Below the pieces are notes generated by a model, which saw only the letters and a program-made list of their open reading frames with translations, was not told the origin of the DNA and searched no databases. A stretch of 64,000 nucleotides of DNA from an uncultured Actinomycetes bacterium. GTDB lineage: Bacteria; Actinomycetota; UBA4738; HRBIN12. Shown here one piece after another: positions 17,615 through 28,717 of the stretch. How positions within the stretch are numbered: the first letter of the stretch is position 1; each line of letters opens with the position of its first letter. The position numbers were made by a program, and so were the translations under genes. The DNA is taken from the NCBI GenBank assembly GCA_964640085.1, contig CAZXFA010000014.1, positions 281-64,280 on the forward strand, given 5' to 3'.

Positions 17615-18517
17615 TCACGGCTCGGCGGTTCGGAGCTCGCCCTCCCGACGCACCACCTCGTTGAAGGACGCGATCGCGACGGCGATCTGATCGCGGTCCG
17701 GCGGCTGGGTGGTGATCTTCTGCAGCCACAGCCCGGGGGTCATCAGGGCTCGGACCAGTCGGGACCCTGGGAACCGCGCTCCGAGGCGGAGCAGCTCGAA
17801 CGCGATCCCCGCGATGATCGGGATCGCCAGGATCCGCGATCCGATCCGCCACCAGAGCCCGGGGTTCCCGAACACCGCGAAGACGAAGATCGTGATCACC
17901 ATCACCAGCAGCAGGAAGTTCGTGCCGCACCGGACGTGGAGCGTGGAGTAGCGGTCCACGGCCGAGGGCTCGAGCACCTCATCGTGCTCGTACGCGGCGA
18001 TCGTCTTGTGCTCGGCGCCGTGGTACGCGAAGACGCGTCGGATGTCCCTCGCGCGTCCGATGAGCAGGAGGTATCCCAGGAACAGCGCGACCCGGAACAC
18101 GCCCTCCATCGCGTTCACCGCCAAGCTCGAGTCCACCCGCCGCCCCACCCATCGGAACGCCGCCGCGGGCAGGACGATGAACAGGAGGAGGAAGATCGCG
18201 AGGGCGAGCACCATCGAGAGGGCCATCTGGCGGGACGAGAGCTGTTCCCCTTCCTCGGCCGCCTCCCGAGCGGAGATCGAGAGGGCCCGGAACCCGATGG
18301 CCAGCGCCTGTCCCAACGCGATTACCCCGCGGATGAACGGCTTCGCCAGGACCGGGTGGCGGCGAGCCACCGACCGGATCTCGTGCGACTCGATGTGGAG
18401 GTCCCCGGACGGCTTGCGGACCGCGATCGCCCAGACGTCGCGGCCGCGCATCATCACGCCCTCCACGACGGCCTGGCCGCCGTAGTGATGGTTGTGCTTG
18501 GCCGCCTCCTCCGCCAT
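17615..18517 (-). CDS. DUF1385 family membrane protein (putative metal-dependent enzyme)
   Basis: YGGQAVVEGVMMRG, YHGAEHKTI, HVRCGTNF, PGLWLQKITT. Confidence 0.88.
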   Translation of the reverse strand: MAEEAAKHNHHYGGQAVVEGVMMRGRDVWAIAVRKPSGDLHIESHEIRSVARRHPVLAKPFIRGVIALGQALAIGFRALSISAREAAEEGEQLSSRQMALSMVLALAIFLLLFIVLPAAAFRWVGRRVDSSLAVNAMEGVFRVALFLGYLLLIGRARDIRRVFAYHGAEHKTIAAYEHDEVLEPSAVDRYSTLHVRCGTNFLLLVMVITIFVFAVFGNPGLWWRIGSRILAIPIIAGIAFELLRLGARFPGSRLVRALMTPGLWLQKITTQPPDRDQIAVAIASFNEVVRREGELRTAEP

Positions 18518-18531
18518 CGGACGGGATCGGC

Positions 18532-18810
18532 TCAGTTGTCCTCGGGGGGAGACTCGCCCGTCGAGACGTCGGCCGGCTTGGCGGCGCGCGCCGATGCGGG
18601 CGCGCTGCCGCCCTGTTTCGCGTACCGCCGCTGGAACCGTTCGACCCGGCCCCCCGAGTCGACCAGCTTCTGCTTTCCCGTGTAGAAGGGGTGACAATTC
18701 GAGCAGATCTCGACGCGGAGCTCGGATCGCGTGCTCCGGGTCTGGAAGGTGTTCCCGCAGGCGCATTGGACCGTCGCCACGCCGTACTCCGGATGGATGC
18801 GTTGTTTCAT
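18532..18810 (-). CDS. rpmE: 50S ribosomal protein L31, zinc-binding type
   Basis: [32 protein letters not shown]. Confidence 0.96.
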
Positions 18811-18846
18811 GTTGCCTCGACTCCTCGCAGGTGATGGCGCTCCAGC

Positions 18847-20430
18847 TTACGAGGCCGGCGCCTTGGCGATCTCCTTGAGGAACTGCTCGTTGGACTTGGT
18901 CGAGCGGATCTTGTCCGTGAGCAGCTCGAGGGCCGCCCCCGGCTCGAGCGCGTGGAGCACCCGCCGGAGCCGCCAGACCAGCGCGAGCTCCTCGGGGGGC
19001 ATGAGCAGCTCCTCCTTGCGCGTGCTGCTCGCCTCCACGTTGATCGCGGGGAACAACCGTTTCTCAGCGAGCTGCCGATCCAGCCGCAGCTCCATGTTGC
19101 CCGTTCCCTTGAACTCCTCGAAGATCCCCTCGTCCATCCGGGAGCCGGTCTCCACCAACGCGCTCGCGATGATCGAGAGGGATCCGCCCTCCTCGATGTT
19201 CCGGGCGGCCCCGAAGAACCGCCGGGGCGGGTAGAGGGCGGTCGAGTCGATGCCCCCGGACAGGATCTTGCCCGAGGCCGGGGCCGCCAGGTTGTACGCG
19301 CGCGCCAGCCGCGTGATGGAGTCCAGGATGATGGCGACGTCCTGGCCCATCTCGGCCAGGCGCTTGGCCCGCTCCAGCACGAGCTCGGTTACCTGGATGT
19401 GCTGATCCGGCGGCTTGTCGAACGTCGAGTACACGACTTCGGCGGCCTCGACCGTTCGCTGCCAGTCGGTGACCTCCTCCGGACGCTCGTCCACCAGCAG
19501 CACGATCACATGGGTCTCGGGGTTCGAGTTCAGGATCCCGCTCGCGATGTTCTTCAAGACGGTCGTCTTGCCAGCCTTCGGCGGCGAGACGACCATCCCG
19601 CGCTGTCCCTTCCCGACCGGAGCAACCATGTCGATGATCCGGCCGGTGACGTCGGTGGGACCGGTCTCCAGACGGAAGCGTTCGTGCGGGAACAGCGGGG
19701 TGAGCTTCTCGAAGTTCGGCCGCCGCTTGGCCTCCTCCGGATCCAGCTCGTTCACCGACTCGATCTGGAGCAGGGCGAAGTACTTCTCGTTGTCCTTGGG
19801 CTGCCGCACCTTGCCGGTCACCGTGTCGCCCTTGCGCAGCATGAACCGCCGCACCTGGGAGAGCGAGACGTAGATGTCCTGCGACCCCGGCAGGTAGCCG
19901 GACGTCCGGAGGAACCCGTATCCCTCCGGGAGGATGTCGAGCAGCCCGGTGGCCGTCGGGGCGTTGGCGATCTCCTCCTCGCGCATCTCCAGCTCACGCT
20001 GCCGACGCTCCTCGCGCTGGCGGCGCCGCTCCTCGCGCGACGGACGTCGTCGTCCGCCTCCCCCCTCGCGTTCCCGACCAGACTCCGGTCGCGTCCCGTC
20101 GGGGCGTGCACCATGCGGACGGTCACGCCGATCGGGCTGCGTCTCCTGCGCGGCGCCGCCCTCGCGCCGCTCTCCGCCCCCCGGCTCGCGGTCCGCATGC
20201 TCGGGGGTAGCCGTCCGGGCGCCCGCGCCCCGATCGCCGTTGTCCGTCTCACGCTCCGATGCGGTCTCGGTCGCAGGGGCGGCGGTGTCGCCGTTCGCGT
20301 GGGCGAGGATCAGCTCGACCAGGTCCGCCTTCTTCAGTCCTCTGTGCCCCTCGATCCCGAGGTCGGACGCGATCTTGTGCAGCTCCGCCGCGACCTTGCC
20401 CTCGAGGGTGCTCCTGTCGATCGTGGCCAC
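18847..20430 (-). CDS. rho: Transcription termination factor Rho (with low-complexity N-terminal insertion)
   Basis: [49 protein letters not shown]. Confidence 0.97.
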
Positions 20431-21093
20431 TCAGGCTCCTTTCCCCAGCTCCCCCTGGAGGGCCTTCCAGTCCTGGAGGAACTTGTCCAACCCGATGTCG
20501 GTCAACGGGTGCTTCACGAGTTGCTTGAACACGTCATGCGGCATCGTGGCGATGTCGGCGCCAGCCAGCGCCGCCTCGACCACGTGCATCGGATGCCGGA
20601 GCGAGGCGGCGAGCACGTTGGTCTCGTACCCCTGGATCTCGTAGATGTCGCAGATCCTGCGCAGCACCTCCATGCCGTCGGAGCCCACGTCGTCCAGACG
20701 TCCGAGGAAGGGCGAGACGATGTAGGCGCCGATCTCGGCGGCCAGGAGCGCCTGCGCCGGCGAGAAGACGAGCGTGACGTTGATCCGGATCCCGTCGGCG
20801 ACCAGGCGCCTGCCGGCCGTGAGCCCGTCGGGCGTCACCGGGACCTTGACGACGGCGTTCGGGGCCATCCGGGCGAGCTCGACGCCCTGCTCGTACATCG
20901 GCCCGGCCTTTGGCTCGGTGGTCTCGAGCGAGATCGGCCCGTCGACCTCCGCAAGGATCTCCTTCCAGACCCGTTCGGGATCGTCGGCCTCCTTGGCGAC
21001 GAGCGACGGGTTCGTCGTCACGCCCCCGAGGACGCCCCACGCGCTGATCTCGCGGATCTCCTGGATGCTGGCGGTGTCCAGGAACAGCTTCAC
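20431..21093 (-). CDS. Transaldolase / fructose-6-phosphate aldolase family (short form)
   Basis: KLFLDTA, GVTTNPSL, VVKVP, NVTLVFS, SPFLGRLDD, AASLRHP; GTG start overlaps the stop of the 2-phosphoglycerate kinase gene. Confidence 0.92.
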   Translation of the reverse strand: MKLFLDTASIQEIREISAWGVLGGVTTNPSLVAKEADDPERVWKEILAEVDGPISLETTEPKAGPMYEQGVELARMAPNAVVKVPVTPDGLTAGRRLVADGIRINVTLVFSPAQALLAAEIGAYIVSPFLGRLDDVGSDGMEVLRRICDIYEIQGYETNVLAASLRHPMHVVEAALAGADIATMPHDVFKQLVKHPLTDIGLDKFLQDWKALQGELGKGA

Positions 21094-22067
21094 CGCTTCC
21101 CCCCTCCTTCGGTCGTACCGGCGACTCGGACCGCGTGCTGGGTCGCGCGGGCGGTCGCGTGCTCCATGACGAGGTCGATGACCGCGGCGAGCGCGCGATC
21201 GAAGTTGTAGTTCGGGATCACGGGGACGCCGTGCGAGAGGGCCTGGCTCTTGATGTACCGCTGCACCCGGCGGATGTTGTCGAACGCCTCCATGTACCGC
21301 CCGGCCGGGCGGCCGGCGTGGTCGGCGGCGCGCACCAGGAAGTGGTTCCGGTGGACCTCCTCGTCGTCCACCGTGAGGATCAGGGGCACGACGAGCACCC
21401 GATCCTCCCAGGCGGACAGGTCCACGAATCCGGGCACGACGTGCGCGCCCTCGATGATCACGCTCGTCCCCTCCATCGCCGCCCGGTCGAGCAACGCGTG
21501 CAGGCCCACCGCCACGGCGGCGGTCTGCTCGCGGAAGCCGACGATCACGGCGTCGCGGGACGGCGGCTCGCGGAGCACCGAGCCCGCCTCGAACGAGGAC
21601 GCGTGGAGCGCGGGCATCAGCTCCCTCGAGAACAGGGCCCGCATGACCTCGCGGACCGCGTCGGTCGCGACCACGCGCACGATCCCCAGCCGCGTGGCGA
21701 GCTGGGTCGCGATCGTGGACTTGCCCACCCCAGTCGTGCCTCCGATCAGCACGACCATCGGGACGTCCAGCGCCTCGACCTCCTGCCACCGGAGGAAGTT
21801 CTTCGCGTATCGCTCCCCGGCCAGCTCCTCGATCGCCTGGAGCGCGATCCGCCGGAGGTCGTCGGAGGAGATGGAGGGCAGGCCGAGATCGAGCAGGCGC
21901 TCCTCGACCGCCTCGGCGACCTGGTACGCGCGGTACGGGGACAGGCCAGTCACCATCACCTGCGAGGCCATCAGCCCCTTGGAGTAGGGCAGCCCAGTCT
22001 CCCCGTCGGAGATCAGGATCTGGGGGTTCTTCGGGTCCTTCCGGGACCCGGATGCGTCCTGCGTCAT
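21090..22067 (-). CDS. pgk2: 2-phosphoglycerate kinase (ATP-cone plus P-loop)
   Basis: N-terminal ATP-cone-like PYSKGLMA..AYQVAEAVEERL; IGGTTGVGKSTIATQLATRLGI..TDAVREVMR; LHASSF; IIEGAHVVPG. Confidence 0.88.
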   Translation of the reverse strand: MTQDASGSRKDPKNPQILISDGETGLPYSKGLMASQVMVTGLSPYRAYQVAEAVEERLLDLGLPSISSDDLRRIALQAIEELAGERYAKNFLRWQEVEALDVPMVVLIGGTTGVGKSTIATQLATRLGIVRVVATDAVREVMRALFSRELMPALHASSFEAGSVLREPPSRDAVIVGFREQTAAVAVGLHALLDRAAMEGTSVIIEGAHVVPGFVDLSAWEDRVLVVPLILTVDDEEVHRNHFLVRAADHAGRPAGRYMEAFDNIRRVQRYIKSQALSHGVPVIPNYNFDRALAAVIDLVMEHATARATQHAVRVAGTTEGGGKR

Positions 22068-23392
22068 CTGCGGCTCTTCCGCTCTTCCGCGAGCTCGATC
22101 GTCTCCCCCAACGCGGTGGGGAGATCGGTCGCTCCGTCCACCACGACGGCCCGGTTGTCGGCGAAGACGACCTCGGCCCCACGTGCCAGGGCGCGCTCGC
22201 AGGCGACGTCCACCGCCGCGGCCTTCAGCTCCGTGAGGAGGATGTCGTAGGCCTCCGCACCGTCCATGTCCTCCACCAGCCCGGCGCGGTCAGCCAGGCG
22301 GGCGCTCCACCCCACCACACGGCACCCGTGCGCCCGTTCCAAGACCTCGGCCTGCCTCGCGGCGACCGCGCCCGGAGCCGTGGTGGCGAAGAACACGTCC
22401 CTGCCCCGGACATCCCCGAGCGGCTGTGGTTCGAAATCCGTAACGATGAATCGCGCATCAGTGCGGAGCCGCTGGACGTGGGACCTGAGAGCAGGAAGGT
22501 TCTCGAGCCCGGTTGGGCTGCGACCCATCGTAACAACCACCAGGTCCGATAGCAACAGGCGGAACGGACCGAGGTACCCACCCAGGTACTCGGGCGGTGC
22601 GGTCGCCGGCACGACCAGGACCCCCGCGTCCCAGGGAACCGTCGGCACCGAGGCGCCGCTGCCCTCGAGCACGATCAGCCCTGCACCGAGGTCCACGGCG
22701 AGCTCAGCCGCGTCACGCACGTTGGTCGCCATCGGCCGCCCCGCGAGCCCCCCGCCGGCCCGCCGAGCACCCACGGTGGTCACGCCGCTCGTGACGGCGT
22801 CCTCGAGGTAGTCGGAGGCGGCGTGCTCCCCGCGCCGCACCAGGTCGAGCAGGCGGTCGAGGGTCACGCCCCCCGCCTCGGCCACCTGCGGGCGGGGGGG
22901 GCCGCCGCGACCCATCGCGACGACCACCGGGTTCCGACCCGCGCGCGCCGCCACCCGCGCGACCTCACCGCCGATCGCGGTCTTCCCGGTCCGCTTCCCG
23001 GTGCCGATCACGGCCAGCGTGGCCACGGGGAGGGGCGCCCCCTCGATCGGCGGATCCAGGCGGAAATCCGGTCCCAGGTACGGGATCCCACGGGTCAGCG
23101 CCACTGCGGCCAGCTCCATCCGTTCTCGGTACCCGAGCACCGGCTCATCCGACAGGTCCAGCACACCCTCGGGCGAGAGCTCCTCGATCGCGGTCGCGAG
23201 CGCCTCCATCCGCCCACGCGAGACCGTGAGGATCGGCACGCCGAGATCCACTGCCTCGTCCGGCCGGACCTTCTCGACGCCGCCGACGAGGAGCGCCGCC
23301 ACCGGCTCGTGACCCGACCCCCGAGCTGCCTCGATGCCCCAGCGGGTGACCGGTGGGTAGTGTTCGCCGTCGACCAAGACGAGCACCCTCAC
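22064..23392 (-). CDS. cpgS: Cyclic 2,3-diphosphoglycerate synthetase
   Basis: LVDGEHYPPV, DLSDEPVL, IGTGKRTGKTA, VAMGRGGP, HAASDYLEDA, RRAGGGLAG, EGSGA, TELKAAAVDV match family motifs as I recall them; SD GGAGG upstream of GTG 23392. Confidence 0.9.
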   Translation of the reverse strand: MRVLVLVDGEHYPPVTRWGIEAARGSGHEPVAALLVGGVEKVRPDEAVDLGVPILTVSRGRMEALATAIEELSPEGVLDLSDEPVLGYRERMELAAVALTRGIPYLGPDFRLDPPIEGAPLPVATLAVIGTGKRTGKTAIGGEVARVAARAGRNPVVVAMGRGGPPRPQVAEAGGVTLDRLLDLVRRGEHAASDYLEDAVTSGVTTVGARRAGGGLAGRPMATNVRDAAELAVDLGAGLIVLEGSGASVPTVPWDAGVLVVPATAPPEYLGGYLGPFRLLLSDLVVVTMGRSPTGLENLPALRSHVQRLRTDARFIVTDFEPQPLGDVRGRDVFFATTAPGAVAARQAEVLERAHGCRVVGWSARLADRAGLVEDMDGAEAYDILLTELKAAAVDVACERALARGAEVVFADNRAVVVDGATDLPTALGETIELAEERKSRR

Positions 23393-23433
23393 GGTGTTCC
23401 CTCCGCCCTCCGAGATGGCGTGGTCGCTTCGGC

Positions 23434-24237
23434 TCAGTTCCCTTGCTGCGCCGCGGCGGTTCGCAGCGGCTGCTGCACGGGCGGCTCGAGCTCCCGGTAG
23501 AACTGCTCGCCCGTGGACAGCGCGAAGTGCGCGATCGCGCTCCCGCCGCCGAACGGGTAGCGGCGCGTGATCTTCACATCGTCGCCCTCGAACTCGAGCA
23601 CGTTGTAACAGGGCTTCGTGTAGCCCCGGAGCCGGAGCGAGGCGACGGTCCCGGCGTTGGCTACGTACAGATCCTCCAGCCGCCACACGTAGGGGACGTG
23701 CTTGTGCCCGGACAGGACGATGTTCACGCCGGCCGAGATCAGCTCTTCGAGCAGATCCCCCGCGTCCATCACGGTGCTCCGTTCTCGGCCGGTGCCGGGG
23801 ATCGGCAGGAGGTGATGATGGAGCACGAACACCTTGAGATCGGCCGCAGCCCGGAACTGCTCGCGGATCCACGGATAGCGTTCGCGGCCGACCTGACCCT
23901 CGTTGACGTCGGGCTCGCTGGAGTCCACGCCCACGATCCGAACCCCCTCCACGTCCACGCACCAATGCCGCTCGCCGATCAGCTCCTCGAAGTGCAGGTA
24001 TCCCACGTTGCGCGCGTCGTGGTTACCGGGGATCGTGTGTATCGGCGCCCGGATCCGATCGGCGTAGGCCACCCAGTTCTTGTACTCCTGCCGGAACCCC
24101 TCGTTGGTGAGGTCCCCGCTGCAGATCACGACGTCGGGCTGGAGCTCGTTCAGCTCGACGATGACCCGGTTCATCAGGTTCGGGACGAAGTAGGGGGATC
24201 CAACGTGCGGGTCGGAGATGTGGGCGACCGTGACCAC
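23434..24237 (-). CDS. Calcineurin-like metallophosphoesterase (CpdA/Icc-like)
   Basis: HISDPH, SGDLT, PGNHD, HHH, SGHKH metal-binding motifs; GTG 24237 preceded by TACACT 6 nt upstream. Confidence 0.9.
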   Translation of the reverse strand: MVTVAHISDPHVGSPYFVPNLMNRVIVELNELQPDVVICSGDLTNEGFRQEYKNWVAYADRIRAPIHTIPGNHDARNVGYLHFEELIGERHWCVDVEGVRIVGVDSSEPDVNEGQVGRERYPWIREQFRAAADLKVFVLHHHLLPIPGTGRERSTVMDAGDLLEELISAGVNIVLSGHKHVPYVWRLEDLYVANAGTVASLRLRGYTKPCYNVLEFEGDDVKITRRYPFGGGSAIAHFALSTGEQFYRELEPPVQQPLRTAAAQQGN

Positions 24238-24300
24238 GGCGTCAGTGTATCCGCGGCCGAGGCGGCGGCGCCCGACACCGCGTGGGACCATACGGACGCC

Positions 24301-25470
24301 GTGAACGGGCTCGATGCGTTCCTGCTCGTCCTGCTGATCCTGGCCGGCCTGTCGGGGTTCCGGCGTGGCCTCGCGCTCCAGACGCTCAGCTTCGGGGGCC
24401 TCCTGGTCGGGCTGGCCGTGGGAGCCGTGATGGCGCCGCTGCTCGTCGGTCTGGTGGAGAGCCCTGCGGCGCGGGCGACCACCGCCGTGCTGGTGTTGGT
24501 GGGGTTCGGCGTTGCCGGGGACGCGGCGGGCTGGCTCCTGGGGGACCGTCTGCGGACGCGGGCACGAGCGACGCGCTTCGGTCGAGCCGACGCGATCGGG
24601 GGGTCCGCCGTGGCGATCCTCGCGTCGCTGGTCGCGATCTGGTTCCTGGCGCTGAACCTCGCCAACGGGCCCCTTCCCGGCGTGGCCGCCGAGATCCGAG
24701 GGTCGGCGATTGTTCGCACGCTCGACGACGCGCTCCCGCAACCCCCCTCGCTCCTGGCGCAGGTCCGGCGCTTCTTCAACCGGTTCGGCTTCCCCGATGT
24801 GTTCTCCGGGATCCCGCCCCTGCCCGCCGACCCGGTCGACCCGCCCTCGCGGGCGCAGGCCCGAGCGGCCTTCGAGGAGGCCGCTCCCAGCACGGTCCGG
24901 GTCGTCGGGCGCGCCTGCGACTCGGTGCAGGAGGGGTCCGGGTTCGTGGTCGCCGAGGGCTACGTGGTCACCAACGCCCACGTGGTGGCCGGGATGCCCG
25001 ATCCCCTGGTGCAGTTCGCGGACGGCACGAGCCTGCCCGGCACGACGGTGCTGTTCGACCCCCAGATGGACCTGGCGATCCTGTTCGTGCGGCAGGGGAT
25101 CGGCGATCCGCTCACCCTCGTCGGGGACGCAGGGCGCGGCGACACGGGCGTGGTGCTCGGGTACCCGAGAGGCGGGCCGCTCACCGGAGACGGGGCGGCC
25201 GTGCTGCGGACGATTGACGCCGTCGGTCGAGACATCTATGGACGGCGCGAGGCCGAGCGCGACGTCCTCGAGCTCCAGGCCGAGGTCCGGCCGGGCAACT
25301 CCGGGGGTCCATTCGTGCTCCTGGACGGTTCGGTCGCGGGCGTGGTCTTCGCGGCCTCGTCGACCGACGACGAGATCGGATACGCGATCGCCTCGCAGGA
25401 GGTCACGCCCCGGGTGGGACAGGCCCTCGGGCGGATCGACGAGGTCCCAACCGGTTCCTGCCTGCCCTGA
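24301..25470 (+). CDS. MarP-like membrane serine protease (CvpA TM domain plus trypsin-like domain)
   Basis: N-terminal TM helices; GSGFVV, TNAHVV, DLA, GYP, PGNSGGP catalytic triad motifs. Confidence 0.88.
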   Translation: MNGLDAFLLVLLILAGLSGFRRGLALQTLSFGGLLVGLAVGAVMAPLLVGLVESPAARATTAVLVLVGFGVAGDAAGWLLGDRLRTRARATRFGRADAIGGSAVAILASLVAIWFLALNLANGPLPGVAAEIRGSAIVRTLDDALPQPPSLLAQVRRFFNRFGFPDVFSGIPPLPADPVDPPSRAQARAAFEEAAPSTVRVVGRACDSVQEGSGFVVAEGYVVTNAHVVAGMPDPLVQFADGTSLPGTTVLFDPQMDLAILFVRQGIGDPLTLVGDAGRGDTGVVLGYPRGGPLTGDGAAVLRTIDAVGRDIYGRREAERDVLELQAEVRPGNSGGPFVLLDGSVAGVVFAASSTDDEIGYAIASQEVTPRVGQALGRIDEVPTGSCLP

Positions 25471-26482: not shown

Positions 26483-28717
26483 CTACTCCTCCATCACGAC
26501 CCGCACATCGCCCTCACGGTCCAGGAGCGAGAACGACGTGATCTCGCCTTCCCGCCGGAACAGGAGGCTGATCCGGCTCTCGCCCACCAGCAGGTTGCGT
26601 ACCTCGACGGTGTTGAGCCAGGTCGGCAGGTGCGGCTGGTTCACGCGGAGAAGGTTCCGGTGGGCCCGGGCGGAGATCCCGAGCATCGCCTGGAGCATCA
26701 GGTACGGGGAGCCCGCCGCCCATGCCTGAGGGGAGCAGGCGATCGGGTAGCTGACCGGGCGGTTCGGCGTCCGACGCGTGAAGCCGCAGAAGAGCTCGGG
26801 CAGCCGGAGGTAGTCCGCGGTGATCGCCGCGTCGAACAGCGCCGTCGCCACCCGGTTCGTCGCTCGCGCGAGCCCGTACCGCTTCATCCCGGCCGCGATC
26901 AAGGCGTTGTCGTGCGGCCAGACCGAGCCGTTGTGGTAGCTCATGGGGTTGTAGGCGGCCGCCCCCTTGCTCATCGTCCGGATGCCCCAGCCGCTGAACA
27001 TGTCCGGGGAGAGGAGGCGCCTGGCCAGCGCGTCGGCCTTGTCGTCGTCGACGATCCCGCAGTACAGGCCGTGTCCCGGGTTCGACATCACCGTGCGCAC
27101 CGGCTGCTTCTCGCCGTCGAGGGCGGCGGCGAAGTAGCGCTCGTCCTCCATCCAGAAGACCTCGTTGAAGCGAGCCCGCAGGCGGAGCCCCTCGAGCTCC
27201 AGGCGGGTCGCCTCCTCCTCGCGCCCCAGGGCTCGGTAGACGTCGGCCATCCGCTGCTTGGCCAGGTAGACGTACGCCTGCACCTCCGCGAGCGCCATCG
27301 GCGGCTCCGCCGGGCGGCCGTCGTCGTGGACGATCGCATCGTGCGAGTCCTTCCACCCCTGGTTGCGGAGCCCGCGGGGCGACCGGCACAGGTACTCGAC
27401 GAAGCCGTCCCCATCGAGATCTCCGTACCGATCGATCCAGGAGAGGGCGGCCTCCGCCGCCGGCAGGAGCTTCTCCGCGAACGCGACGTCGCCCGTCCAT
27501 CGGAAGTGCTGCGCGTACACGATCAGGAACCACGGCGTGGCGTCCACCGACCCGAAGTAGGGGGTGTGGGGAACGACACCGGCCCGGGCGAGCTCCCCCC
27601 GACGGATCTCGTGGAGGATCTTGCCCGGTTGCTCGTCCCGCCAGTCGTCGACCTCCGTCCCCTGCTTGTCGGCGAGCAGCTGGAGGGCCTCGCGGGCGGA
27701 GCGCGTGTTCACCATCAGGAGCTGGTGGGCGGTGATCAGCGAGTCTCGGCCGAAGACCGTGACGTACCACGGGATCCCCGCGGCGAGGACGCCGCCGTCG
27801 GCGGTCTCCGTCCAGAGCGCTCGGAGGTCGCGCAGGCTCCGATCCAGGAGCTGGTTGTACAGCTCGTTGTCGGTCGCGATCCTGGTCGACCCGCGCTCCC
27901 ACTCCTCGTAGGACCGGCGGAGCACGTGGATCGCGTGATCGAAGTCCACGGCCGCGACGGGCCCGTCCTCCTCGACGGGCTCGACCGTCAGCCCCACGAG
28001 CTTGGTCTGGTACGGACCCAGGTGGAGCCGGAAGAGGGCCACCGCCGTGACCCCATCCACCTCGATCCGGTCGGGCCGGGCGGCGAAGGACACCCGGGTG
28101 GATCGTCGCACCCGATCGCGCCCCTGGCAGACGAACTCGACCGTCCCGCGGTCGATCGCGGGGGGGCGGGGCTGCTCCGGTACCTCGCGCGCCATGCCGC
28201 GCACCTCGAAGATGTCGGCGAAGTCGGCGGCGAACCGGAACTCCAGGTCGATCTCCACGGGTGACGGGTTGTAGTTCTTCACCCGGACCCGCTCGAACAG
28301 CCGACCGTTGATCGCCCGGATCCGGCGGATGTTGAGGGTCTGCTGCGGAACCACCACCTCGCCTTCGCGGAAGAGATCCGGGTTGGTGAGGTCGACGTGC
28401 GACATGTAGCCGCGCTCGGACGAGGACGACAGCAGCACGGGGTCCCGCCCGTTGATCGTCATCCGGAAGAGCGAGAGGAACCGCGTGTCCCGTGCGTACA
28501 GACCGAGTCCGAAGTCCCCGCCGTGATCCAGGTTCCCCTCGAGGTCCGAGTACAGGAAGGTGTCGCCCTCCTTGACCGAGAGCGTCTTGCTGGCGAGATC
28601 GGTGAGCAGGATGGGCGGGCTCCCCGGCTGGGGGTGGGAGGAAGCGGGGCGAACCTCCGCATGCGCATCCATCGAGGTGATCCTCGCGAGTCTAGGTTCG
28701 GTCTCGGGCACGTTCAA
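26483..28717 (-). CDS. Amylo-alpha-1,6-glucosidase / glycogen-debranching family (alpha/alpha)6 glycoside hydrolase
   Basis: GLYARDTRFLS, FADIFEVRG, AGIPWY..FGRDSLI, EQPGKILHE, NQGWKDS, YHNGSVWPHDN, PQAWAAG. Start may be 28672. Confidence 0.88.
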   Translation of the reverse strand: MNVPETEPRLARITSMDAHAEVRPASSHPQPGSPPILLTDLASKTLSVKEGDTFLYSDLEGNLDHGGDFGLGLYARDTRFLSLFRMTINGRDPVLLSSSSERGYMSHVDLTNPDLFREGEVVVPQQTLNIRRIRAINGRLFERVRVKNYNPSPVEIDLEFRFAADFADIFEVRGMAREVPEQPRPPAIDRGTVEFVCQGRDRVRRSTRVSFAARPDRIEVDGVTAVALFRLHLGPYQTKLVGLTVEPVEEDGPVAAVDFDHAIHVLRRSYEEWERGSTRIATDNELYNQLLDRSLRDLRALWTETADGGVLAAGIPWYVTVFGRDSLITAHQLLMVNTRSAREALQLLADKQGTEVDDWRDEQPGKILHEIRRGELARAGVVPHTPYFGSVDATPWFLIVYAQHFRWTGDVAFAEKLLPAAEAALSWIDRYGDLDGDGFVEYLCRSPRGLRNQGWKDSHDAIVHDDGRPAEPPMALAEVQAYVYLAKQRMADVYRALGREEEATRLELEGLRLRARFNEVFWMEDERYFAAALDGEKQPVRTVMSNPGHGLYCGIVDDDKADALARRLLSPDMFSGWGIRTMSKGAAAYNPMSYHNGSVWPHDNALIAAGMKRYGLARATNRVATALFDAAITADYLRLPELFCGFTRRTPNRPVSYPIACSPQAWAAGSPYLMLQAMLGISARAHRNLLRVNQPHLPTWLNTVEVRNLLVGESRISLLFRREGEITSFSLLDREGDVRVVMEE

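Follow-up and report, generated by a model that had tools for sequence, protein, structure and literature searches.

Does an actinobacterium make and turn over cyclic 2,3-diphosphoglycerate (cDPG), a compound associated with methanogenic archaea? The question is raised by a gene cluster on contig CAZXFA010000014.1 (assembly GCA_964640085.1) of an uncultured Actinomycetes bacterium, whose genome comprises 2.73 Mb in 60 contigs and is 96.9% complete. The window, meaning the whole stretch of 64,000 nucleotides (nt) that was analyzed, has a GC content of 70%, and positions are counted from its first letter. On its minus strand, the genes for a metallophosphoesterase (MPE1), a cDPG synthetase (cDPGS) homologue (cpgS), a 2-phosphoglycerate kinase (2PGK) homologue (pgk2), and a fructose-6-phosphate aldolase/transaldolase-type enzyme (fsa) follow one another and run into rho. 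We assign a probability of about 0.6 to the reading that MPE1-cpgS-pgk2-fsa, possibly together with rho, is one conserved transcription unit predicted to encode a cDPG-type pathway and its turnover by MPE1.

In the proposed scheme, Pgk2 would phosphorylate 2-phosphoglycerate with ATP to 2,3-diphosphoglycerate (2,3-DPG), and CpgS would spend a second ATP on closing the cyclic pyrophosphate to give cDPG, as in Methanothermus fervidus. MPE1 would act on the same pool, either by opening the ring (cDPG hydrolase) or by dephosphorylating 2,3-DPG, and its action would return carbon and phosphate to glycolysis and gluconeogenesis. An earlier note on this DNA had called the third enzyme a phosphodiesterase, which is loose chemistry, since cDPGS closes a phosphoanhydride bond (De Rose 2023).

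CpgS, a protein of 442 amino acids (aa) encoded at 22064 to 23392 on the minus strand, matches the M. fervidus cDPGS (PDB 8ORU/8ORK) with a phmmer E value of 7.3e-92 and 311 bits. The aligned span covers residues 2-436 of CpgS and chain residues 5-452 of 8ORU/8ORK and includes the N-terminal domain of about 127 aa. The match to PDB 9SXB (E 6e-91), a 436-aa entry labelled cDPGS that could be a non-methanogen enzyme, is as good as that to the M. fervidus enzyme. The local copies of Pfam and NCBIfam, which contain no cDPGS model, gave no match, and PF27272 is listed for the protein itself and for all 120 relatives among the matches listed. For the M. fervidus enzyme, De Rose 2023 names E45 and K46, which come from the partner subunit, the P-loop residues K145, R146, K149, and T150, which contact 2,3-DPG, nucleotide, and Mg, the Mg ligand D208, and K406. 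These residues correspond to E40, K41, K133, R134, K137, T138, D194, and K390 of CpgS, and all eight positions are invariant in an alignment of 18 diverse relatives that are 38-57% identical to the window protein. The P-loop reads GTGKRTGKT, which fits Walker A GxxGxGK[T/S], while D194 lies in HAASD, K390 in LTELKAA, and E40/K41 in GGxEK. With its full-length match and all named catalytic residues kept, the protein belongs to the cDPGS family, as the earlier note had proposed.

The kinase homologue pgk2 (21090 to 22067, minus strand; 325 aa) matches the 2PGK equivalog NF003259 with an E value of 1.3e-87 over profile positions 5-298 of 306. Its 294.1 bits stay below the curated cut-off of 343, a point that counts against the assignment; this cut-off seems tuned to methanogens, because a haloarchaeal pgk2 that overlaps cpgS scores 296.1 bits. 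The P-loop region is also matched by Pfam AAA_33 and AAA_18 (residues 105-206), and the mevalonate-3-phosphate 5-kinase model NF008996 reaches an E value of 8e-23, which is 65 orders of magnitude worse than that of the 2PGK model. The proposal that pgk2 encodes a 2PGK is thus upheld by its best-matching model and falls short on the curated bit score. Apart from this strict NCBI kinase cut-off, sequence tests indicate that cpgS and pgk2, each present in a single copy in the source genome, truly belong to the families of the cDPG pathway.

Naming by family alone is risky, because distant cDPGS relatives proved to be arginine synthetases (ArcE), which are widespread in bacteria (Michimori 2024). 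The bacterial pair could likewise have drifted to another substrate, with a different phospho acid being phosphorylated and then cyclised or ligated, and with a product other than cDPG. Besides the ArcE precedent, the place of the mevalonate-3-phosphate 5-kinase model within the 2PGK family, the pgk2 score under the equivalog cut-off, and the lack of bacterial cDPG on record in the literature found would agree with such drift. We consider it quite unlikely, given that the residues contacting 2,3-DPG, Mg, and nucleotide in 8ORU are all invariant, that the 2PGK model is so much the better match, that the haloarchaeal pgk2 beside cpgS scores alike, and that arcB- or arcC-type genes were absent among the neighbours scanned. 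ArcE (Thermococcus kodakarensis TK2200) belongs to the same P-loop superfamily and also occurs in bacteria, including Actinomycetota, but it shows low similarity to cDPGS and is placed as an outgroup with it (Michimori 2024), whereas CpgS is a close match over its full length. CpgS groups with the Methanobacteriaceae cDPGS-type sequences and is set apart from ArcE by description only. Moreover, ArcE genes often lie near arcB or arcC, whereas the neighbours of cpgS are the genes for 2PGK and MPE, fsa, and rho.

In an unrooted, quick maximum likelihood tree of 63 CpgS proteins, the 14 archaeal sequences, those of Methanobacteriaceae included, form one group (SH-aLRT 90). This group joins a subset of the actinobacterial families and a Bacillota metagenome-assembled genome (MAG) (SH-aLRT 95) through short branches, with no long separating branch, and the tree gives no sign that the bacterial CpgS proteins form a functionally separate clade. 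With regard to archaeal transfer or vertical inheritance, which the earlier note had brought up, the tree is unrooted, and hence neither a direction of transfer between archaea and bacteria nor a donor is claimed. Taken with the conserved active site, these comparisons make it probable that the bacterial pair makes cDPG or 2,3-DPG.

The earlier note had also implied that such a module is a rarity, which is not what the phylum as a whole displays. Among 401 genomes drawn evenly from Actinomycetota, cpgS was found in 228 (cut-off E 1e-20), pgk2 in 228 (E 1e-30), and an MPE homologue in 226 (E 1e-50). The per-family tallies of the three genes are near-identical, with 0/21, 0/19, 0/13, and 0/10 in four families and 31/31 in another. 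When the overlap was assessed by eye, 223 genomes carried both cpgS and MPE, 5 cpgS only, 3 MPE only, and 170 neither. The MPE count mixes two paralogues, MPE1 and MPE2, because the match in family f13 is an MPE2 orthologue and that in family f6 is equidistant from both. The tallies include 13-14 unpublished genomes (G001, G018, G048, G082, G088, G120, G148, G174, G226, G239, G268, G318, G343, and G391), whose omission shifts each tally by at most 14 and none of which supplied a fetched locus.

A protein database search with CpgS returned at least 7976 matches at E <= 1e-10 (8000 candidates scored), and many of these relatives already bear the name 'cyclic 2,3-diphosphoglycerate synthetase [Actinomycetota bacterium]'. 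Named relatives were confirmed for 448 of 600 pattern matches, and the best 80 of the 448 were taken. Within these 80, the closest relatives (75-78% identity) are MAGs from soil, groundwater, sediment, and similar sources labelled Actinomycetota or Actinomycetes, and further ones come from Euzebyaceae, Coriobacteriia, Rubrobacteraceae, and Acidimicrobiia MAGs. The remaining ones lie outside the phylum and comprise a single Bacillota MAG, a contig binned as Burkholderiales, and, among archaea, Methanobacteriaceae, Natronorubrum, and a Thermoplasmata MAG. The source genome is no exception in carrying this module, which is common across the phylum. Because the module is not unique to this genome and already carries a public label, its value lies in the comparative pattern rather than in the single locus.

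Within the window, the genes are packed tightly. The MPE1 gene (23434 to 24237, minus strand; 267 aa) ends with a TGA at 23436-23434 and is followed by a 41-nt spacer (23393 to 23433) that contains GGAGGG at 23399-23404, 6 nt before the cpgS GTG at 23392. The TGA of cpgS overlaps the ATG of pgk2 as ATGA, a translationally coupled junction. Up to this point, the coordinates of cpgS and pgk2, their junction, and the co-oriented metallophosphoesterase 41 nt upstream are as the earlier note had described them. Two further junctions, absent from that note, extend the series: the stop of pgk2 overlaps the GTG of fsa (20431 to 21093, minus strand) as GTGA and couples these two genes as well, and fsa abuts rho (18847 to 20430, minus strand), which begins directly after the fsa stop. 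The successive gaps between MPE1, cpgS, pgk2, fsa, and rho are therefore 41, -4, -4, and 0 nt, and third-position GC (GC3 of 0.87-0.96) marks these minus-strand frames as the coding ones. The 220-aa Fsa scores 266.4 bits against TIGR00875, over its cut-off of 245.95, and also matches PF00923; rho is recognized by its Rho_RNA_bind, ATP-synt_ab, and Rho_N domains.

Gene order was compared in 44 loci from 44 genomes of the phylum, representing about 30 families; 40 of these loci were chosen from 150 listed places to spread families, and four of the 28 genomes of family f18 were added afterwards. Contig ends excluded L027 from the MPE count and L005 from the pgk2 count, leaving 43 informative loci for each. 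The pgk2 gene lies directly downstream of cpgS in 41/43 loci, both exceptions being Rubrobacteraceae-type loci with glpX, and the gene immediately 5' of cpgS, in the same orientation, is MPE in 36/43. The MPE-cpgS gaps range from -61 to +180 nt by the start calls of each locus, and most are below 60 nt. MPE is likewise adjacent in 45 of 60 informative bacterial loci among the named relatives, a set that includes several of the same contigs and is not independent of the first. Between pgk2 and rho, fsa is found in 34/40 loci. All four f18 loci lack the downstream fsa-rho pair and retain MPE-cpgS-pgk2 intact, so that this trio can be regarded as a conserved unit.

Some loci depart from this arrangement. 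In a genome of the Rubrobacteraceae-type family f16 (G041; L023 10818-11852), glpX, encoding a class II fructose-1,6-bisphosphatase, stands between cpgS and rho in place of pgk2-fsa, and family f16 carries a weaker pgk2 homologue (E 1e-44 to 1e-53) elsewhere in the genome. An apparent cpgS-pgk2 fusion of 748 aa in L021 proved to be an artefact of open reading frame (ORF) extension, since a TAA separates the two genes. Three longer database proteins (775-2210 aa; E <= 1e-20, 8000 candidates scored) look like read-through on frameshifted contigs and not like clean fusions: P0125 joins part of an MPE to a cpgS fragment, P0126 joins half of cpgS to 39 residues of pgk2, and P0124 contains cpgS only.

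The start of the cluster carries a promoter-like signal. The hexamer TACACT (24244 to 24249, minus strand) lies exactly 6 nt 5' of the MPE1 GTG at 24237, as previously reported, with no Shine-Dalgarno sequence between them, which is the layout of a leaderless mRNA. A TANNNT hexamer, mostly TAGACT or TACACT, occurs 6-11 nt before the start codon in 41/41 order-level relatives with an intact 5' end; in these, a GTG or ATG start opens the sequence 'MVTIAHISDPH', there is no Shine-Dalgarno sequence, and the bases flanking the hexamer are not conserved. Because the hexamer is kept in all of these close relatives, GTG 24237 is supported as the true MPE1 start and TACACT as a leaderless-type -10 box, and this sequence pattern would fit a leaderless mRNA of the MPE1 operon in the source lineage. 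At the MPE1 start of more distant loci the hexamer is missing (0/35), and many of them carry GGAG-like sites instead. The recurrence of the gene order in dozens of genomes and of the hexamer in all close relatives makes the layout more than chance.

Scans of 18400-24700 gave no sigma-70 consensus site (mean of 0.2 in shuffled sequences), which is uninformative for an actinobacterium of 70% GC, and no terminator (1.4 in shuffled sequences), which says little beyond the absence of an obvious one at this GC content. RNA data were taken from three sediment metatranscriptome runs of one study (word shares of 0.20, 0.11, and 0.06). Single contigs of these RNA libraries span the junctions MPE/cpgS (23320-23479), cpgS/pgk2 (22022-22458), pgk2/fsa (21026-21382), and fsa/rho (20246-20565). 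As they are 95-99% alike to the locus, they derive from a close relative and not from the source strain; they fit cotranscription and cannot prove a single transcript, DNA carry-over being possible. No contig of the three runs covers the bins 24188-24661, just before the MPE1 start; inside cpgS, bin 22529-22765 is uncovered as well and 22766-23002 nearly so. Such gaps prove nothing. The suggestion of one transcript nonetheless gains from the overlapping or abutting genes, the conserved -10 box, the lack of terminator-like sites, and the junction-bridging contigs, and rho may be part of the same transcript. In bin 18974-19210, inside rho, the summed contig depth is 638, 12, and 43 in the three runs, compared with single digits elsewhere; it probably reflects a conserved rho segment common to other organisms, because many contigs of 31-32 nt map there.

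What MPE1 does is the less secure part of the scheme. The protein matches PF00149 (E 5e-20; 73 bits against a cut-off of 21.5), and its metal motifs D9/H11, G41/D42, G71-N72-H73-D74, H140-H142, and G177-H178-K179-H180 are invariant in 25 aligned sequences, as are the subfamily motifs DSSEPD, PGTGRER, and DAGD beside the metal ligands. In a Foldseek search with its AlphaFold model (pLDDT 89.9), the top seven matches are entries of GpdQ, the glycerophosphodiesterase of Enterobacter aerogenes, and of Rv0805, the class III cyclic-nucleotide phosphodiesterase of Mycobacterium tuberculosis (E 2e-16 to 5e-16, TM scores of 0.65-0.71). MPE1 is thus a binuclear metallophosphoesterase of the GpdQ/Rv0805 fold class, sharing with these enzymes the fold, the five metal motifs, and a length of about 270 aa. 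It differs from them in its sequence (19-21% identity), in belonging to a separate subfamily marked by the three motifs above and shared with Methanobacteriaceae homologues, and in its genomic partner, which is cpgS and not a glycerophosphodiester or cAMP system. The protein atlas returned solely clusters of 'metallophosphoesterase family protein', and NCBIfam gave weak matches to the cAMP phosphodiesterase CpdA and the 2',3'-cNMP phosphodiesterase SpdA.

These matches raise the alternative that cpgS and pgk2 make 2,3-DPG and cDPG, with MPE1 acting as a class III cyclic-nucleotide or general phosphodiesterase of the ordinary kind whose position reflects inherited gene order and no common chemistry. 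Rv0805 and GpdQ are its best matches in both sequence and fold, and the weak CpdA and SpdA matches point the same way. So does the paralogue MPE2, which is encoded elsewhere in the source genome (contig C2, 2809-4162, locus L124) by a 331-aa ORF with an N-terminal extension and is 51% identical to MPE1: its gene lies divergent beside that of a 214-aa protein with a cNMP_binding domain, a pair that looks like a cyclic-nucleotide phosphodiesterase and its sensor, and every invariant motif is common to MPE1 and MPE2. Families f6, f13, f22, and f63 and the haloarchaea, moreover, have cpgS-pgk2 without MPE1. On the other side stand the adjacency to cpgS across about 30 families, the persistence of the three-gene cassette in f18 despite the lost fsa-rho context, and the finding (by eye) that only 3 of 173 cpgS-negative genomes of the phylum have an MPE at the E <= 1e-50 cut-off. 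The promoter signal preceding MPE1 in close relatives argues that MPE1 leads the operon and likewise speaks against a bystander. We therefore judge an ordinary phosphodiesterase to be a rather unlikely account.

The preferred reading, in which MPE1 turns over the product of its neighbours, has in its favor that the conservation of MPE1 equals or exceeds that of CpgS, with identities across loci of 51-86% for MPE1 and 38-76% for CpgS. The partnership of MPE with cpgS that the earlier note had suggested accordingly stands as conserved adjacency and co-occurrence. In MPE trees, the cpgS-adjacent copies mostly cluster, and MPE2 and the f6 type branch near the Rubrobacteraceae and f7 MPE1 proteins with weak support. 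The sole MPE match in f13 is 66-73% identical to MPE2 and 47-48% to MPE1. Weighing the sequence evidence on both sides, we give somewhat less than even odds to MPE1 acting on the cDPG or 2,3-DPG pool.

The association can also be followed in archaea. In the Methanobacteriaceae phylum (151 genomes), cpgS is present in 140 genomes, whose homologues are 37-44% identical to the window protein, and an MPE homologue at E <= 1e-40 in 137; by eye, 131 genomes have both, 9 cpgS only, 6 MPE only, and 5 neither. These MPE-subfamily homologues show 41-48% identity to MPE1. The aligned Methanobacteriaceae homologues also carry DSSEPD, PGTGRER, and DAGD, at 40-43% whole-protein identity and 33% for the most distant one. 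The second archaeal phylum sampled (121 genomes, centred on Natronorubrum) has cpgS in 5 genomes and an MPE homologue (E <= 1e-40) in 19, with 4 having both, 1 cpgS only, 15 MPE only, and 101 neither (by eye); MPE thus occurs in 4/5 cpgS-positive and 15/116 cpgS-negative genomes. Two Natronorubrum genomes and one Methanobrevibacter genome with cpgS have no MPE homologue at E <= 1e-5, so the cpgS-MPE association is real but not obligatory. In Natronorubrum and the Thermoplasmata MAG, pgk2 lies directly downstream, its start overlapping the cpgS stop. In this MAG (L093), an MPE gene located 436 nt past cpgS-pgk2 (36% local identity) was rejected as an orthologue on account of its very long branch (3-4 changes per site) and left uncounted. 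In two Methanobacteriaceae genomes (G401 and G402; L135-L139), a metallophosphoesterase of 250-264 aa is encoded two to three times. The copies fall into two distinct groups, none of them lies beside cpgS, and they are 38-45% identical to MPE1; no functional description of them was found.

Compared with the cDPG pathway of M. fervidus and the Methanobacteriales, the window holds the same two enzyme families with all catalytic residues of cpgS kept. It differs in its bacterial host, whose relatives come from non-thermal habitats, and in that its activity is a predicted one. It also differs in the arrangement of the genes in one operon with overlapping stops and starts, MPE leading and fsa and rho following. 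The predicted MPE1 reaction, cDPG to 2,3-DPG, would be that of the Methanothermobacter thermautotrophicus cDPG hydrolase, an activity described in the early 1990s (van Alebeek 1994; Sastry 1992, cited in Roberts 2005). The available sections of Roberts 2005, the hydrolase literature found, name no gene for the archaeal enzyme, and hence provide no sequence link to MPE1.

A series of observations weighs against the reading of the locus as a bacterial cDPG pathway with MPE1 as its turnover enzyme. De Rose 2023 calls cDPG exclusive to hyperthermophilic methanogens, and the cDPGS literature found concerns archaea or consists of reviews; it contains no bacterial cDPG, and supplements (e.g., Michimori 2024, figures S10 and S11) may list actinobacterial relatives. 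The Methanothermobacter hydrolase activity is membrane-bound and inhibited by K+ and phosphate (Roberts 2005), whereas the MPE1 model is a soluble-looking sandwich without any helix longer than 14 residues, which gives no sign of a segment integral to the membrane (a dedicated transmembrane predictor was not applied). In the 25-sequence motif alignment, no active-site signature specific to MPE1 was seen, and the cNMP_binding neighbour of MPE2 hints at another substrate class. Fifteen archaeal genomes of the second phylum carry MPE without cpgS, and cpgS occurs without MPE nearby or at all in 7/43 informative actinobacterial loci, in the two Natronorubrum genomes, and in the Methanobrevibacter genome. 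Ten Methanobacteriaceae-type loci (6-kb flanks complete in 9 and partial in 1) have neither pgk2 nor MPE near cpgS; an eleventh, L094, is too short at 1.9 kb for a neighbour call. The co-occurrence counts overstate the support, because related genomes are not independent. Unless the two enzymes are regulated, expressing a synthetase together with its hydrolase from one mRNA could also lead to a futile cycle.

Solute surveys of Rubrobacter are said not to have reported cDPG; of these, that of Empadinhas in 2007 was reportedly an NMR survey and the other a targeted assay. These surveys would suit a third alternative, in which the operon supplies 2,3-DPG only, for instance as a cofactor of the dependent phosphoglycerate mutase or as a regulator, with MPE1 and CpgS keeping the pool small and no cDPG accumulating. 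The apparent cotranscription with the housekeeping gene rho would suit it as well. Without cDPG formation, a conserved enzyme dedicated to cyclisation, its active site intact, would serve no purpose, and we regard this alternative as very improbable.

If cDPG is made, as the reading of the locus as a cDPG-type unit predicts, its role would, with low confidence, be that of a carbon, phosphate, or energy buffer or of a stress solute. Storage or buffering is likelier than thermoprotection, because the carriers are mostly non-thermal (soil, groundwater, and sediment) and the neighbouring genes belong to sugar-phosphate or gluconeogenic metabolism (fsa or glpX). The thermoprotective role included in the earlier note is unlikely here, given the habitats of the closest relatives. 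In Methanobacteria, precedents exist: cDPG in Methanothermobacter is a rapidly turned-over carbon and phosphate store tied to gluconeogenesis, and the compound also occurs in the mesophile Methanobrevibacter smithii (Roberts 2005). Going further, cDPG could be an ancient and widespread metabolite of Actinomycetota, made from one operon next to rho and serving mesophiles as a carbon, phosphate, or energy reserve linked to gluconeogenesis, with MPE1 and its archaeal homologues as the missing cDPG hydrolase; we put this forward tentatively and hold it to be rather doubtful.

Over half of the Actinomycetota sampled encode the complete pair, its active site intact, in contrast to the papers found, which call cDPG a solute of (hyper)thermophilic methanogens. 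Should the product be made, the ecological range of cDPG and its presumed function as an extremolyte would need rethinking, with storage or buffering fitting better than heat protection. The mesophilic bacterial enzymes would be a possible new source for making cDPG, which is of commercial interest, and the conserved MPE is a concrete candidate for a cDPG-degrading enzyme that is cheap to test. Both the comparative pattern and the candidate hydrolase appear to be unstudied.

The surroundings of the cluster yield some minor observations. Beyond rho, the minus strand continues with rpmE, a DUF1385 gene, a DivIVA-like gene, prfA, and prmC. Divergent from MPE1, a plus-strand gene at 24205-25470 encodes a CvpA (Colicin_V) membrane domain fused to a trypsin-like protease; its true start is probably at about 24285-24300, because the alignment of relatives begins only at about residue 27-33 of the listed ORF. 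With such a start, a divergent promoter region of about 50 nt would separate it from MPE1. Further upstream, the minus strand encodes at 26483-28717 a protein of 744 aa that combines GDE_N_bis, mannosylglycerate-hydrolase-like (MGH1-like), and GDE_C domains. Its gene, traced by tblastn, precedes the cDPG genes in the same orientation in 14/40 loci, in several families at a distance of only 2-3 kb. The proximity of an enzyme that releases glycerate or debranches glycogen to a module that consumes phosphoglycerate may not be accidental.

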